A stretch of DNA of 64,000 nt, taken from contig CAWCPV010000005.1 of the NCBI GenBank assembly GCA_963797555.1, positions 224,001 to 288,000 on the forward strand, written 5' to 3'. The notes beneath the pieces are model-generated. The model saw only the letters and a program-made list of their open reading frames with translations, searched no databases and had not been told where the DNA came from. A program made the translations under genes and the position numbers. Position 1 is the first letter of the stretch. Each line of letters begins with the position of its first letter. Below are positions 369 through 49,342 of this stretch, piece after piece. The stretch comes from an uncultured Gammaproteobacteria bacterium (GTDB taxonomy: Bacteria; Pseudomonadota; Gammaproteobacteria; CAWCPV01).

Positions 369-1727
369 ATGCACATCCACGTCCTCGGAGCTGGCGGCAC
401 CTTCATGGCGGGTGTGGCCATCCTCGCCAAGGCCCTCGGCCACCAAGTCACGGGCTCCGATAGCCGGGTCTACCCGCCGATGAGTACACAGCTCGAGAGC
501 CAAGGTATCGCGATCTGCGAGGGGTATGCGGCCGAGCATCTGCGCCCGCCGCCCGACCTAGTAGTGGTCGGCAACGCAATGAGCCGGGGAAATCCCGCTG
601 TGGAGTACCTCCTGAACGAGGGTCTAGCCTACACCTCGGGTCCGCAGTGGCTGGCCGAGCATGTCCTGGAGGGGCGCTCCGTGCTCGCCGTCGCGGGGAC
701 GCACGGCAAGACCACGTCCGCCAGCCTTCTCGCCTGGATCCTGGAACGCGCGGGGCTCGCCCCCGGGTTTCTCATCGGTGGCCTGCCCCGCAATTTCGGG
801 GTCTCGGCGCGTCTGGGCAACGGGTCCTGCTTTGTGGTGGAGGCAGATGAGTACGACACCGCGTTCTTCGATAAGCGATCCAAGTTCGTCCACTACCGCC
901 CGCGAATCCTTCTGCTGAACAATCTCGAGTACGATCACGCGGATATCTTTCCGGACTTGGAAGCCATCAAGACGCAGTTCCATCACCTCATCCGCACCGT
1001 CCCGAGTGCAGGCGTCATCCTGACGGGCCACGGCGAGAGGCACCTGGATGAAGTGCTTGCCCGCGGGTGCTGGACCCCGAGCGAACAGTTCGGGTCCGGG
1101 GGGCGTTGGACAGCGCGGTTGGAAAGCGCCGACGGGACTCGCTTCACAGTGCTGTGCGACGGCCAGGTGCTGGGGCAACTGACATGGGATCTCACAGGAC
1201 GACACAACGTAAACAATGCCATGGGTGCGATAGCGGCAGCTAGCCATGCCGGTGTGTCACACCACTTGGCGCTGGCTGCACTCGCAGAGTTCCGCGGCAT
1301 CCAGAGACGACTGGAGCAACGGGGTCGGGTGAGGGGGGTTACGATCTACGATGACTTCGCCCATCACCCCACCGCCATCGCGTCAACCCTCGCGGGACTC
1401 AGGGCACGGGTGGGACAGGCCCGCATCGTGGCCGTCCTGGAACCTCGTTCCAACACCATGCGCCTCGGGGTTCACCGGGATGCATTGGCGCCGGCGTTGA
1501 CGCTGGCGGACGAAGCAATCCTCTATCAGCCACCTTCGCTGGGGTGGGATGTAGCCGAGGTGGCTGGCGCTGTCGGCTCAAGGGCGAAGGTGTTTCGCGC
1601 CGTGCCAGACATCATCGAGTACCTGGCCGGGACCGCGCGACCGGGCGATCACGTGCTCGTCATGAGCAACGGTCCGTTCGAAGGTATCCACGAGCGGCTG
1701 TTGCAGGCGCTGCAAGGTGCTTCCTGA
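369..1727 (+). CDS. mpl: Murein peptide ligase Mpl
   Basis: MHIHVLGAGGTFM N-terminus, GTHGKTT P-loop, EADEYDTAFFDKRSKF, DDFAHHPTAI, EPRSNTM. Confidence 0.96.
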   Translation: MHIHVLGAGGTFMAGVAILAKALGHQVTGSDSRVYPPMSTQLESQGIAICEGYAAEHLRPPPDLVVVGNAMSRGNPAVEYLLNEGLAYTSGPQWLAEHVLEGRSVLAVAGTHGKTTSASLLAWILERAGLAPGFLIGGLPRNFGVSARLGNGSCFVVEADEYDTAFFDKRSKFVHYRPRILLLNNLEYDHADIFPDLEAIKTQFHHLIRTVPSAGVILTGHGERHLDEVLARGCWTPSEQFGSGGRWTARLESADGTRFTVLCDGQVLGQLTWDLTGRHNVNNAMGAIAAASHAGVSHHLALAALAEFRGIQRRLEQRGRVRGVTIYDDFAHHPTAIASTLAGLRARVGQARIVAVLEPRSNTMRLGVHRDALAPALTLADEAILYQPPSLGWDVAEVAGAVGSRAKVFRAVPDIIEYLAGTARPGDHVLVMSNGPFEGIHERLLQALQGAS

Positions 1728-1771
1728 GCCCATCGTCCTGGCCCTGACAGGCACGCCTCCGGCGCCCACCC

Positions 1772-2440
1772 AGTGTGCCTGCCCGGCATGGGACGAGACT
1801 TGTGACCTGCGAGGAGGACAGCCCGGAAAGAGTGACGACAACCGTAGTGAAGCGCAAGGCGAAAGCCGCGAGGCCAACACGGCCCCGTCGAAGTCCCGCC
1901 GGCGGGAGGGATGTTGAGTGGCGTCGAGCATCGAGTCGGAGATCCGCGCCTGTTGGGCAAACGGTTGAGCAAGTTCGGCCTGCGTCTGGAGCCGAGCGAG
2001 ACCAAGCTCGTCGAGTTCGGTCATTATTGTATGCCCAGAAGTCCGCGGGCAAGTGCACGCGCAACCAGAAGGGCAACTTCTAGGGCGGGGCTGCGTGCCG
2101 AGAAATCTCGACTGCCGCGCAGTCTGAATCCACTTGGGCGACCTGATACGGCGCATGCGGCGCTTGCCGACGCGCGAGCAGGTCATCAACCTCAATCGGG
2201 TGCTGCGAGGCCACTTCGCCCACTCCAGTATCGCTGGTAACTTCCGGGCCTTGCAGCAAGTGCATCGGTTCGTCGAATGATACTGGCACAAGATGCTGTG
2301 TAGCCGCAGCCGTGACGGGCACATGACGTGAGAGGTTTTCCGCCCCTGTTGCGCCCTTACCGGGCGCTGCAGGCTATCGCTGTGCCGTAAATCTTTCACT
2401 CTTCGAAGAGCGTAGTGCAGGAAATCCGCTCGCTACGTAC
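1772..2440 (+). mobile_element. Degenerate, internally deleted group II intron (5' RNA part, RT/maturase fragments, domain V)
   Basis: Fragments VEHRVGDPRLL, KRLSKFGLRLEPSETKLVEFG, CTRNQKGNF and LNRVLRGHFAH..IAGNFRALQQVHRFVE*YWHKMLCSRSR. Domain V-like GAAGAGCGTAGTGCAGGAAATCCGCTCGCTACGT at 2405-2438. No YADD motif. The 5' boundary is approximate. Confidence 0.8.
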
Positions 2441-2531: not shown

Positions 2532-3425
2532 TCAAGCGCGGCTCGTGTAGTCCAAGAGGACGCCCGCGAAGATGGCTGCCCCCATCCAGTTATTGTTGAC
2601 GAAGGCCAGGAAGCAGCCGCGGGGAGAGCGCTGGCGTACTAGGTACTGCTCGTAAACGGCGAGCCCGGCAGCCGCTGTAAGACCCGTGAAGTAAAGCCAG
2701 CCTCGGTTCAGGCTAGCGCCGGCCACGGCCAGGACTGTTAGCATGGCCGCATGCGCGAGACCGACCACAAGGCGATCGTGACGCCCGAAGAGGATGGCGG
2801 CGGACTTGATGCCGATGCGTAGGTCATCGTTTCGATCCACCATCGCGTACAACGTGTCGTAAGCGACCGCCCACAGGACGGCGGCCCAGAATATTGCCCA
2901 CGCGACCGCCGGCACCCTTCCGGTCTGGGCGGCGAACGCCATCGGGACGGCCCAGCCGAAGGCCACGCCCAGATATACCTGCGGAAGATGGGTGTGGCGC
3001 TTCGTAAAAGGATATGTCACAGCCAGGAATAGGCCCGCCACCGACATCAAGACCGTCAGGAGGTTGGTGAGAAGTGCCAGGCCGAAGGCGGTGACGCTGA
3101 GCACCACGAACACAGCGACAGCCTCCTCGGGGTGGATGCGCCGGGCGGCCAACGGGCGATCCCTGGTACGGCGTACATGGGGGTCGAAGTTGCGGTCGGC
3201 GTAGTCATTGACGGCGCACCCCGCCGAGCGCATGAGGACCACACCCAGCACAAACACGGTGACGACCCGCGGGTAGGGGTGACCGTCGCCGGCAATCCAC
3301 AGCGCCCAGAGGGCGGGCCATAGCAACAGCAGGATCCCGATGGGACGATGTAACCGTACGAGCAGAGCATACTGACGCACCTTCTCGACCCAAGCAGGTC
3401 CGTCGGTGTCCCACCCCCACCTCAC
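2532..3425 (-). CDS. ubiA: 4-hydroxybenzoate octaprenyltransferase
   Basis: RLHRPIGILLLLWP, MRSAGCAVNDYADRNFD, YDTLYAMVDRNDD. Confidence 0.96.
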   Translation of the reverse strand: MRWGWDTDGPAWVEKVRQYALLVRLHRPIGILLLLWPALWALWIAGDGHPYPRVVTVFVLGVVLMRSAGCAVNDYADRNFDPHVRRTRDRPLAARRIHPEEAVAVFVVLSVTAFGLALLTNLLTVLMSVAGLFLAVTYPFTKRHTHLPQVYLGVAFGWAVPMAFAAQTGRVPAVAWAIFWAAVLWAVAYDTLYAMVDRNDDLRIGIKSAAILFGRHDRLVVGLAHAAMLTVLAVAGASLNRGWLYFTGLTAAAGLAVYEQYLVRQRSPRGCFLAFVNNNWMGAAIFAGVLLDYTSRA

Positions 3426-3991
3426 GGGGTCAGCTCCTCCAGCAATGCCGGAAGGAAGATTTCGCTAACCAAAAGGACGTGCCGTTCTACATAAAATACA
3501 GAGCGGCGTGCCCACACCGTTTGTGGCACGGATGGAATGAGACGGCTCGCGAGCCTGAACAGGGGCTGACCGCCGTTGAGGCAGGCAACGTGAACCGCGC
3601 CGCGCCGTAGGGTTGGGTCCGCGAATAGGACGGCACCGAGGGACCGCGTTCCCAGGCGCCCCAGGCGTTGATGACGGCCGGCAAGGGTTGCGCGCGGAAA
3701 CACGGTGCGGGCGAAGACCCACGGGGCTTCGCCGCAGCCTAGACTGACCTGACGCACCAGGGCAAGTTCTTGGTGGGAAAGACCGAGCTGCCTCGCTTCA
3801 TCCAATAGGGGCCGTTCCCAGGACTGCTGCAGTGGATGCACGCGGACCTGTCCAGCACACAGCTGGCGCAGCCGCCGAGTCAGGGACGACGGGTCTCTCA
3901 GCCAGCGGCGCACAGACTCCGGCGTCTCAAGCGCGCGAAGCCTCCCGTACGGGAGCCAGTGAGGTGTTCCACATCGGACCTGCCGCTTCAC
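3422..3991 (-). CDS. ubiC: Chorismate pyruvate-lyase
   Basis: WLRDPSSLTRRL, VRQVSL, WVFARTVFP, SLGAVLF, WARRSVF, LLVSEIFLP. The likely GTG start is at 3991; the longer ORF upstream is recG/repeat debris. Confidence 0.9.
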   Translation of the reverse strand: MKRQVRCGTPHWLPYGRLRALETPESVRRWLRDPSSLTRRLRQLCAGQVRVHPLQQSWERPLLDEARQLGLSHQELALVRQVSLGCGEAPWVFARTVFPRATLAGRHQRLGRLGTRSLGAVLFADPTLRRGAVHVACLNGGQPLFRLASRLIPSVPQTVWARRSVFYVERHVLLVSEIFLPALLEELTP

Positions 3992-4536
3992 CCTGCGCTG
4001 AAGCTGTGCCCTGGGCTTGTGGGCAACGGCGCGCGAAGCCGAGCTTGCCCCAAAGCCGCCGGAGGAGGCATAGATGGGCGTCAGATGCGTTTCAGGTTCC
4101 AATGCCATGCCAGCACTGAGAGCTCGTGAATAAATCTGCTGCGCGTCCCGATAGCGGCGTTGCGCGGTGCTCGCTCCTCGCCTATCTACTTGATATGTCT
4201 CGTCGCTGCGCTCCGTGCGCCTTGCTCTCGGGCCGCTCGCGACGATTTCTTCACAAGCTCTGAGGACACGATACTCGGGTTGGACTTTCTCCGCCGGCGG
4301 GCCCGACACGCGCCGTCCTAAAACACTGCCGCACGGCTCCAAGGCGTAGCCGTTCCTGATAGTAGCTGCCGAAGTGGACCAACCGAACAGTTAGTCTACC
4401 GGTGTCGTCCTCCAGGCAGCGCACCGAGATCCGGCGGCCGGGCCCCCAAGCGCGCGAGGTGCTCGCTCAAGGGTGGTGAGAGGCATCCGCGAAAGAGTCT
4501 TGGGCTGGACGCCGACCGCGGAATTCCCGCAGGCAC
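3988..4536 (-). pseudogene. recG: recG remnant (N-terminal/wedge fragments; helicase core deleted)
   Basis: Minus-strand pieces in order: PLTTL, EHLARLG, GRRISVRCLEDDTGRLTVRLVHF..QERLRLGAVRQCF..RVGPAG, VQPEYRVL, EPETHLTPIY, LGQARLRA. This is the usual recG position between ridA and ubiC, and the final TGA overlaps the ubiC GTG. Confidence 0.8.
4117..4263. repeat. Palindromic MITE-like element, copy 1 (141 bp between TGA direct repeats)
   Basis: Imperfect terminal inverted repeats GAGCTCGTGAATAAATC / GATTTCTTCACAAGCTC, with TGA at 4117-4119 and 4261-4263. A related copy lies at 49226-49333. Confidence 0.88.
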
Positions 4537-4545
4537 ACCTTCGCG

Positions 4546-4938
4546 TCAGCGCCGCAACTCCAGGACGGCATCAATCTCGACGGCGGCGCCGCGCGGCAGC
4601 GCCGCAACGCCGACGACTGCACGTGCGGGGTACGGCTCCTTGAAGTAGCCGGTCATGACCTCATTGACCTTTGAAAAGTGGGCGAGATCGGTCAGAAATA
4701 CGGTCAGCTTAACCACATCGTCCAGGCTGCCACCTGCTGCCCGAGCGACTGCCTGCAAGTTGTCCAGGGCCCGAGCGATCTGCATCTCCGTGCTGCCATC
4801 CACCAGATCCATGGTGCTCGGGTCCAGCGGAATCTGCCCCGACACATACACCGCGCTTCCGACCTTGACAGCCTGCGAGTAAGTGCCAATGGCTTGCGGT
4901 GCGGATTCCGTGTGGATGGCTTCGCGCCGCACGCTCAA
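4546..4938 (-). CDS. ridA: Rid (YjgF/RidA) family enamine/imine deaminase
   Basis: APQAIGTYSQA, SGQIPLDP, PYPARAVVGVAALPRGAAVEIDA. Confidence 0.92.
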   Translation of the reverse strand: MSVRREAIHTESAPQAIGTYSQAVKVGSAVYVSGQIPLDPSTMDLVDGSTEMQIARALDNLQAVARAAGGSLDDVVKLTVFLTDLAHFSKVNEVMTGYFKEPYPARAVVGVAALPRGAAVEIDAVLELRR

Positions 4939-7131
4939 CCCTTCGTGCGATTGATGCGCATCACCAAGCGGTTGCTACGGATCCTGCGCATGATACGGGC
5001 CAAGTGCTGCCGGCCCTTCACCGCAACCGTGAAGTTGAGGGTAGTGTAGAGACCGTCCCGCTCGGTGATGCTGACGTTCTCGATGTTCGCCTCCATCTCG
5101 GCGATCGCCGCCGCGACGCTGGCCAGCACCCCCCTTTGGTTGGCCACTTCAACCCGCATCTCGACCGAGAAGTCACCGGCCACCGTGGGCTCCCACTGAA
5201 CGTTCAGGCTCTTGTCGGGCGCGTCCCGGAATTCCGCGACGTTCTTGCAGGACGCTGCGTGGATGACGATCCCACGCCCCGCGCTGACGAAGCCGACGAT
5301 GGTATCCCCGGGGATGGGACGGCAGCACTTTGCGAAAGCGACCACCATCCCCTCGGTCCCCTGAATGGCCAGCGGTCGAGCCAAGGAGGACTCGATCTTG
5401 CGGTCTCTGACCTCCGGCTCCGGGGCAAGCCGGCGCGCTACCAGCGGGGCTAGACGCCTTCCCAGCCCGATGTCTTCGTAGAGCGCCTCTGTCGCGGGGA
5501 CATTGAGTCTCTTGCAGCAGCCCGGTCATCCGCTCCTGGGGCACTTGTGCGAGCGATAGGGAGAGCACGCTCAGCTCCTTCTCCAAGAGACGTCTGCCGA
5601 GCGCGATCGCCTCGTCCTGCTGGAGGTTCTTCAGGTACTGACGGATATTGGCGCGCGCCTTGGCGGTGACCACGCAATTGAGCCAGGATGGTTTGGGCCG
5701 AGCACCCGGTGCCGTCAGAATCTCGACTTGCTGGCCGTTGTGGAGTGGGGTGTGCAGCGGCGCCCACCGCCGGTCGATCTTCGCGGCCACGCAGGCGTTC
5801 CCAATGTCGGTGTGCACCGCGTAGGCGAAATCCACTGCGGTGGCTCCTCGCGGCAGCACCTTGATCTCACCCTTGGGCGTAAAGACGTATACCTCCTCCG
5901 GAAACAGGTCTACCTTTACGTTTTCGAGGAATTCTAGAGAGTTACCCGCACTCTTCTGCATCTCCAACAACCCGCGCAGCCACTCCCGCGCTCGCTGCTG
6001 CGTGGTGTTGGGCGCATCGCCCGTCTTGTAGAGCCAGTGTGCAGCGATGCCGGCTTCCGCCACCTTGTCCATCTCTTCGGTGCGGATCTGCACCTCCAAA
6101 TGCACGCCGTAAGGTCCGATTAACACCGTGTGCAAGGATTGGTAACCGTTCGCCTTGGGGATCGCGATGTAATCCTTGAACCTGCCGGGGACAGGTTTGT
6201 AGAGATTGTGCACCGCGCCGAGCACGCGGTAGCAGGTATCGACCTTGTCGGTGACGATGCGAAAGGCATAGATGTCAAACACTTCTTCGAAGGACAGCGT
6301 CTTGCCACGCATCTTCTTGTAGATGCTGTAGAGGTGCTTCTCCCGTCCCGACACCCGTCCGTCGAGGACCTCTTGGCGGAGGCGCCGCTTGAGTGCGGTC
6401 TCGATCCTGTCCACTATTTCCCTGCGGTGCCCTCGGGCCCGCATGATGGCGGCGCGTAGCACGCGCGCCCGCGTCGGATGGAGAGCAGAGAACCCGAGAT
6501 TCTCCAACTCTAGGCGGATGGCATTCATGCCCAGACGGCTGGCAATAGGGGCATAGATCTCAAGGGTTTCCCGCGCGATTCGCCGGCACTTGCTGGCTGG
6601 CATGGCGCCCAAGGTGCGCATGTTGTGCAGGCGGTCTGCGAGCTTGATGATGATGACTCGGATGTCTCGCGCCATGGCCAGCAGCATCTTGCGAAAGTTC
6701 TCCGCCTGGGCCTCCGCGCGGTTCTCCGCGTTCAGCTGGGTGATCTTGCTGACCCCATCCACCAGTTCCGCCACTTCCTCACCGAACTTTCGGGCCAGCA
6801 CCTCCTTGGGCGTCCCCGTGTCTTCGATTACGTCATGCAGCACGGCCGCGACCAGCGTGTGATGGTCCATCCGCATGTCTGCGAGGATTCGCGTAACCGC
6901 GATAGGGTGGTAGATATAGGGCTCTCCGGTCAGCCGATGCTGGCCTTGGTGGGCCTCGGCGCTGAACAGATAGGCTCTGTACACCTCCTGGACCTTGTTA
7001 GGCGGGAGATATGTCTCCAGCAGAGCACACAGGTCACTGATCAGGAAAAGGCCTCGACTCGCCCGCGCCTCAGGGGCGAGGGTCGGGATCTGAGCTGCCG
7101 GCGCGGGAAGAGTGCTCACAGGGGTGGTCAA
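4935..7131 (-). CDS. spoT: Bifunctional (p)ppGpp synthetase/hydrolase SpoT (one apparent 1-bp insertion near 5508)
   Basis: HD motif LHDVIEDT, KLADRLHNMRTL, YQSLHT, TGS domain. The C-terminal ZFD/ACT part (AKCCRPIPGD) is in another frame. Confidence 0.95.
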
Positions 7132-49228: not shown

Positions 49229-49333
49229 GAGCCTGTGAACAGGTCTGCTGCCTGTCTACCGCATAGGTCTCGTAGCTGCGCTCCGCGCGCCTTGCTCTCG
49301 GGCCGCTCGCGACGATTTCTTCACCAGCTCTGA
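49226..49333. repeat. Palindromic MITE-like element, copy 2 (102 bp between TGA direct repeats)
   Basis: Shares GCGCCTTGCTCTCGGGCCGCTCGCGACGATTTCTTCAC with copy 1 and is 39 bp shorter. The left TGA is the regulator's stop codon. Confidence 0.88.
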
Positions 49334-49342
49334 GTCGGTCCG

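Follow-up and report, generated by a model that had tools for sequence, protein, structure and literature searches.

A palindromic MITE in a decayed recG gene of an uncultured gammaproteobacterium: an open reading frame through the element best explained by chance

The described systems closest to the element analysed here are the insertion sequences of the IS5 family (IS1031/IS427 type) and their MITE derivatives. GAG..TGT...AAAA termini, insertion at CTNAG and a 3-bp duplication of TNA are common to them and to our element, and the derivatives are likewise small, palindromic and devoid of a transposase. For the IS1031 subgroup of the IS5 family a preference for TNA is given in PMC1676026. 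The Rickettsia palindromic elements (RPE-1, TIGR01045) are also palindromic and about 150 bp long, and according to PMC10969869 they occasionally reside in-frame in ORFs. Third, ERIC, the Coxiella elements QMITE1 and QMITE2 and the Correia elements are fold-back repeats present in dozens to hundreds of copies, which are occasionally fused in-frame and for which insertions close to genes of DNA repair are described (PMC5896051, PMC10969869). In-frame fusions of a MITE with an ORF are known for the Coxiella QMITEs (PMC5896051), and a 2024 review calls such fusions 'not unusual' (PMC10969869). The duplications are stated to measure 2-4 bp for QMITE1 and 7-11 bp for QMITE2 (PMC5896051).

The element of this study lies in a recG remnant of an uncultured gammaproteobacterium, within the window, i.e. 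the whole stretch of 64,000 nucleotides that was analysed (Table 1). An initial annotation had described it as an RPE-1-like element which donates peptides to proteins and which may have entered recG while the gene was still functional. We consider it very probable that a MITE inserted into an already dead recG and that the reading frame is open by chance. The event itself, a MITE in a pseudogene, is ordinary.

Table 1. Coordinates of the features discussed (window positions).
Feature	Position	Strand	Remark
recG remnant upstream of the element	4265..4439	-	wedge/OB part 4439-4287; EKVQPEYRVL in the other frame
recG remnant downstream of the element (SAGMALEPETHLTPIYASSGG...)	4000..4115	-	helicase domains deleted; lower boundary approximate
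ubiC (chorismate lyase)	3422..3995	-	ORF-fused to the remnant via read-through; start approximate
ridA	4546..4938	-	precedes recG in relatives
MITE core, 141 bp, short form	4120..4260	+	near full-length hairpin
Left terminal inverted repeat	4120..4136	.	GAGCTCGTGAATAAATC; family consensus GAGCTTGTGAA...
Right terminal inverted repeat	4244..4260	.	GATTTCTTCACAAGCTC
Left TGA of the 3-bp target-site duplication	4117..4119	.	within CTGAG
Right TGA of the 3-bp target-site duplication	4261..4263	.	
Second family copy in the window	49250..49334	+	partial copy, restricted to the right end; 90.6% identity across 85 nt

The genes around the element are arranged on the minus strand in the order gmk, rpoZ, spoT, ridA, recG-remnant region, ubiC, ubiA, and in eight distant relatives recG follows ridA. 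When the relatives' recG genes were compared with the window by tblastx, window 4439-4287 corresponded to the RecG wedge, window 4291-4247 to (E/M)IHPEYRLL and window 4126-4022 to the stretch around LTP(I/L)YP. The recG remnant of the initial annotation was thus recovered as far as the RecG-like flanks are concerned, but the wedge part is not in the frame of PEYRVL, from which it is offset by one additional base near 4287-4291. The gene lacks its first ~75 codons, and since only about 35 codons lie between the ridA stop and the wedge part the N-terminus is gone. RecG beyond about residue 190 is absent as well, both helicase domains included, and ubiC follows directly. No second recG was found in the assembly (marker-gene completeness 84.6%), where an Mfd-type gene gave the sole further RecG-like match. 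This Mfd-type helicase ORF (G000:C3:510577-512547) is conserved in its C-terminal two thirds and reads out-of-frame in its N-terminal part.

In none of the eight aligned RecG proteins of the relatives are the 48 residues of the element present; their linker comprises 11 residues, compared with 11 + 48 in the window. The insertion point coincides with the final residue of the OB-fold match (79-151) and is situated inside Pfam RecG_wedge (30-184), both numbered on the RecG of one relative. The minus-strand ORF 3422..4342 (306 aa) reads from PEYRVL through 48 residues into SAGMALEPETHLTPIY and is free of stops throughout the element, which confirms the stop-free passage in the frame of the recG remnant that had been annotated. 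PF04345 (Chor_lyase) matches residues 140-300 of this ORF with an E value of 9.6e-32.

Two further regions of the window are also interrupted or fragmentary. The spoT gene is split (window 4935-7131, minus strand) into a 652-aa ORF (5173..7131), finishing in out-of-frame sequence, and a separate 149-aa ORF (4935..5384) with the ACT-like C-terminal part; this is either a pseudogene or an assembly indel. The ORF translations of window 1578-2400 resemble fragments of a group II intron reverse transcriptase, and a related peptide motif recurs at G000:C3:202310-203180.

On the plus strand, window 4116-4264 reads C-TGA-GAGCTCGTGAATAAATC...GATTTCTTCACAAGCTC-TGA-G. The length of 141 bp, the imperfect inverted ends, the TGA on both sides and the addition of 48 codons, all contained in the initial annotation, proved exact to the base, and these features lie far outside what chance would give. 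The palindromic core has GAGCT(C/T)GTGAA ends, and the net addition to the sequence is 144 bp without a stop in the recG frame. The inverted arms measure 21 nt with a complementarity of 86%, and the terminal inverted repeats are kept in all near-identical copies and in other genomes. Matches to metagenome contigs often start or stop at 4115-4116 and 4263-4265.

Folded whole, the element forms a single long imperfect hairpin. The RNA fold proposed as a check gave a near full-length hairpin for the minus strand (-64.1 kcal/mol, z -4.95), and none of 200 shuffled sequences was as stable; for the plus-strand DNA the z value was -1.83. The 48-aa peptide from the open frame had no NCBIfam match at E<=10. 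Rfam reported no family above threshold for the element, a group II intron appearing only sub-threshold with 18.3 bits (gathering score 49). From ERIC, the QMITEs and the Correia elements our element differs in its termini and duplications, the sequence relation to these having been checked via Rfam only.

Using BLASTN with the element against the genome we obtained 256 hits, which correspond to 196 loci, or 193 after joining halves. Membership in a MITE family, as annotated, is thereby established. The 193 loci consist of 80 two-ended copies, 91 one-ended copies and 22 internal pieces and amount to 28.1 kb, i.e. 0.53% of the 5.35-Mb genome. The element is short, multi-copy and without a transposase gene, and it has terminal inverted repeats, a target-site duplication and a corresponding empty site, as expected of a MITE. 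Some 15 copies share 96-99% identity with the one in recG, which consequently belongs to the youngest burst. The short form comprises 149 bp including CTGAG at both ends. The long form of about 224 bp carries in addition an internal module of 75 bp, made up of three small hairpins, and has a net length of 219 bp. At one locus with a ~5.7-kb segmental duplication one, two or three tandem 75-bp modules are present (G000:C11:173-395, C12:3269-3566 and C20:2177-2492), so that the module acts as a variable tandem repeat. The genome as a whole is rich in insertion sequences, with 426 repeated segments of at least 400 bp, the largest families reaching about 45 copies.

The family is not confined to this genome. 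In public genomes the terminal 21-mer was located in at least 109 stretches, and 80 loci were examined; among the matches listed, the hosts are assemblies of Gammaproteobacteria, Chromatiales, Thiotrichales, Pseudogulbenkiania, Rhodocyclaceae and Magnetococcales. The plasmid collection contributed one partial match of 86.6% on a Nitrosomonas plasmid, with nothing annotated beneath it. A full-text search for the terminal motifs retrieved no published description of the family, the matches listed being only unrelated primers. The MITE family is real, large and widespread, and it is apparently undescribed so far. Its conserved termini are documented here across many assemblies of Gamma- and Betaproteobacteria and of Magnetococcales. 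Copies of the family also mislead gene callers, which make spurious ORFs or shifted starts from them, as in P0122 and the 442-aa ImuB call P0002.

We then considered how the element is inserted. Two-ended copies in this genome are flanked by TGA on both sides in 41 of 73 cases and by TCA on both sides in 2 of 73. The possible targets CTGAG (4465 occurrences) and CTCAG (4337) are equally common in the genome, and this bias of TGA over TCA (41 vs 2), read relative to the orientation of the element, is not predicted by simple random-orientation insertion. In the public genomes (at least 109 stretches), both ends were found within 400 nt in 60 of 81 matches. Among these 60 two-ended copies the flanking triplets are identical in 40, all of them TNA (20 TGA, 19 TCA and 1 TTA), and the C...G context around the triplets is present in 33. 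TGA and TCA are about equally frequent in these other genomes. The identical triplets demonstrate a real 3-bp duplication at CTNAG, and together with the empty site described below, which differs by 144 nt, they bear out the TNA target duplication of the initial annotation.

As an alternative to a DDE-transposon derivative, the element could belong to the REP/REPIN-like palindromes, which an enzyme of RAYT type (IS200/IS605-like) places beside a fixed pentanucleotide without any duplication. The hairpin formed by the whole element would fit such a palindrome, as would the presence of CTGAG in one orientation beside nearly every copy in this genome and the sharing of the pentanucleotide by adjacent copies. 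In other genomes, however, the triplet varies between TGA, TCA and TTA and is equal on both sides in those 40 of 60 copies, which means duplication. Furthermore, the empty site differs by the core plus 3 nt, and terminal inverted repeats of 17-21 nt fit the ends of the IS5 family. We regard the REP/REPIN-like origin as extremely unlikely.

The element shares with IS1031-type insertion sequences the 3-bp TNA duplication and inverted repeats that begin with GAG. A candidate source of transposase is an intact insertion sequence of 1141 bp at G000:C14:507897-509037 (locus L245:649-1789) with the ends GAGGGCGTTTACAAAATC and GAGGGTGTTTACACAATC. Its transposase of 353 aa was matched by NF033580 'IS5 family transposase' with 215.5 bits (cut-off 110) and contains DUF4096 and DDE_Tnp_1. 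This insertion sequence sits tightly between two MITEs, one a diverged short copy and the other of the long form, and has flanking triplets in common with these neighbours; the triplets on its two sides are unlike, TGA on the left and TCA on the right. The ends of the elements at this locus appear to recreate the CTNAG target. In other genomes, the insertion sequences of relatives of this transposase start with GAG(G/C)NTGT...AAAA after CTNA, a pattern into which the MITE end GAGCTTGTGAA(A/T)AAATC fits. Since the terminus of the C14 insertion sequence and that of the MITE match at only about half of the positions, this particular insertion sequence is no more than a possible source of mobilisation in trans.

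A partner with the MITE's own ends was not encountered in the searches made. Pairs of the terminal motif 300-6000 bp apart in the genome enclose no transposase, and the ends of 14 insertion sequence families of the genome do not resemble the MITE termini. Among 80 related insertion sequence loci none carries GAGCTTGTGAA at its end, and the single match with at most one mismatch is internal. In these respects, and in the triplet orientation bias and the optional 75-bp module (1-3 tandem copies), the family differs from IS5-family derivatives. A literature search for MITEs derived from IS1031 or IS427 returned no description of such a MITE. Several candidates were rejected: L188, with 1179 bp between its ends, consists of two MITEs around a protease gene; IS1250 makes 4-bp duplications; the insertion sequence at C14:364510-365776 bears CAGG at its ends and duplicates TTAC; and the route via PF13359 led only to IS1250. 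Of the IS5-type trans-mobilisation put forward by the initial annotation, the end pattern, the TNA target and a resident IS5-family transposase could be substantiated, but not an insertion sequence with the ends of the MITE. From these sequence features we infer mobilisation by an IS5-family enzyme, and an IS5-family source of the MITE is plausible.

The order of events could be deduced from related strains. Window 3500-4900 was compared with four metagenome runs that contain parts of the stretch, and in two of them, X1 and X2, contigs of a related strain join 4115 to 4260 without the element. These contigs skip exactly 144 nt (4116-4259), three letters being ambiguous between the two sides. 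Record 8 of run X2 (1740 nt) departs from the window in 45 places over 615 nt, so that this strain is ~93% identical (about 7% divergence). The record is unbroken over 3501-4115, thus spanning the ubiC/recG deletion junction, and has no indel at the frameshift site near 4285-4291. The truncation and the frameshift of recG are therefore common to both strains and older than the insertion and the strain split. Of the two lineages only that of the window has the element. In the X1/X2 strain 94 nt of the recG wedge remnant (4320-4413) are swapped for 21 nt, and one nucleotide is deleted at 4052; the recG pseudogene is decaying separately in both lineages.

The empty-site contigs belong to a different strain, where precise loss of the element is formally possible; a site which was never occupied is the simpler reading. 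An empty paralogous site inside this genome was not found when the flanks of the two-ended copies were compared with the genome by BLAST. The empty-site contig puts the events in sequence, recG decay first and the MITE later.

These contigs contradict the suggestion that the insertion took place in a still functional recG. The idea that the element entered a working gene, which decayed later, draws on the position, a variable linker where the OB-fold ends and where an extra loop might be tolerated, and on the open frame. Against it, a strain that diverged by ~7% shares the recG-ubiC deletion junction, is free of indels at the frameshift site and yet lacks the element, and the copy belongs to the youngest burst with 96-99% identity. 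As recG is truncated identically in the related strain, where the element is missing, recG was dead before the element arrived, and insertion into the working gene is very unlikely.

We propose that a non-autonomous fold-back MITE with a 141-bp core and GAGCTTGTGAA termini, which targets CTNAG and duplicates the central TNA, was cut and pasted into the recG remnant by a transposase supplied in trans. The insertion followed the loss of the N-terminus and the helicase domains of recG and added the 144 bp. Among the six combinations of orientation and phase the element presumably fell by chance in the only one that is free of stops. Because of this orientation and phase a gene-like ORF links the remnant, across the element, to ubiC. 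This ORF would be a by-product, with no function implied.

The alternative that had been annotated is that the element is kept open and frame-preserving as a peptide donor, with the recG copy as one such donation. A kinship with RPE-1 did not hold: TIGR01045.1 (RPE1, 48 positions) found no match at E<=10 in six frames of the whole genome and none in the peptide. The net lengths of the short form (144 bp) and of the 224-bp long form (219 bp) are both multiples of three, and so are those of 38 of the 73 copies in this genome, as would be expected of a donor. In other genomes, however, a net length divisible by three was found in only 14 of 60 copies, and for this reason the length of 144 bp looks accidental.

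The distribution of the copies also speaks against a peptide-donating family. Genic and intergenic positions were called with a codon-usage classifier of our own, not from annotation, which found the right frame in 83% of tests. It was applied to the 73 two-ended copies at a distance of 240 nt or more from the ends of their contigs; another seven two-ended loci and the 113 fragments are outside this set. Seven of the 73 copies are intragenic with consistent frames on both sides, compared with 40.2% of 6000 random CTGAG sites. Nine of the 73 have two coding flanks in different frames, the figure for random CTGAG sites being 8.7%. The MITE copies are depleted from coding DNA. Furthermore, the open phase is used by only one of the seven intragenic copies, where 27% would be expected (644 of 2410 random intragenic CTGAG sites). 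For a random genic insertion the chance of an outcome like that in recG is roughly one in four.

An excess of open frames was not found either. The element has one open frame out of six, which is below chance (mean of 1.47 in shuffled sequences and of 2.78 in random 149-mers of this genome), and the short- and long-form consensus sequences likewise have one each. The frame has stayed open in 10 of 17 and in 15 of 27 diverged copies, compared with 7.5 and 12.7 predicted for random substitution, only substitutions being counted. Of the ORFs that read through a copy, 19 have at least 40 codons on each side, and a Pfam scan of 16 of these gave a family match in five. In three of the five (PPK2, beta-lactamase-like and DUF2909) the gene begins after the element; the others are imuB and a recB-like gene. 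Clear cases of read-through are two, the recG remnant and imuB.

The element differs from RPE-1 in several ways: it has no similarity to the RPE1 model, most of its copies lie outside genes, the reading frame of the peptide is not preserved, and it has IS5-type ends and clearly duplicates its target. The analogy with RPE does not hold up, either in sequence or in statistics, and the open recG frame through the element is best explained by chance.

Copies in three other proteins bear on the idea of peptide donation. The imuB-like ORF at G000:C14:277483-279069 (locus L120:226-1812) codes for 529 aa and is otherwise full-length. It aligns end-to-end with eight homologues (474-485 residues, 49-71% identical) save for a block of 48 residues, which is the element, inserted behind PLAVAQG, after residue 31. 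This copy is 88% identical and is read in a different element frame, whose single consensus stop is replaced by CAG here. The Pfam IMS match picks up at model position 30 directly after the block. An exact insert of 48 aa in an ORF conserved to its C-terminus would be expected of a donor. On the other hand, the record's own imuB gene call P0002 starts after the element, and the adjoining dnaE2 is broken up into two frames that overlap (278987-280885 and 279759-282173), for which reasons the imuB/dnaE2 cassette may be decaying.

The recB copy is situated at G000:C2:256975-257123 (locus L006:1501-1649). Here the downstream nuclease part (PD-(D/E)XK) is in phase with the open frame of the element, in keeping with a donation, but the upstream frame stops inside the element, at the TGA of the inverted repeat. 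The recB gene is disrupted.

A comparison of the peptide with 5.8 billion proteins (longer proteins only) yielded six matches, none of them a RecG. One is a PyrK-like protein of 347 aa from another sample in which the peptide is internal, which again is in favour of donation. In two matches (NuoA and a CocE/NonD fragment) the peptide is C-terminal, and one match is a spurious ORF of this genome. Both imuB and the PyrK-like protein show that read-through copies are not always located in dead genes.

Weighing these cases against the missing match to TIGR01045, the distribution and the frame counts, we consider it improbable that the element is maintained as an RPE-like peptide donor. The single imuB case keeps a weak version of this idea alive, namely that this subfamily, with its net length of 144 bp (219 bp with the internal module) and its one stop-free frame, occasionally provides functional proteins of free-living Proteobacteria with loops of 48 residues which they tolerate; ImuB and, elsewhere, a flavoprotein subunit resembling PyrK would be instances. 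This restricted version is unlikely, too, though somewhat less so; if it were true, an RPE-like route of protein change would have arisen independently from an IS5-type MITE. As a minor observation, recG, recB and imuB, each of which carries a copy of the element, are all DNA-repair genes.
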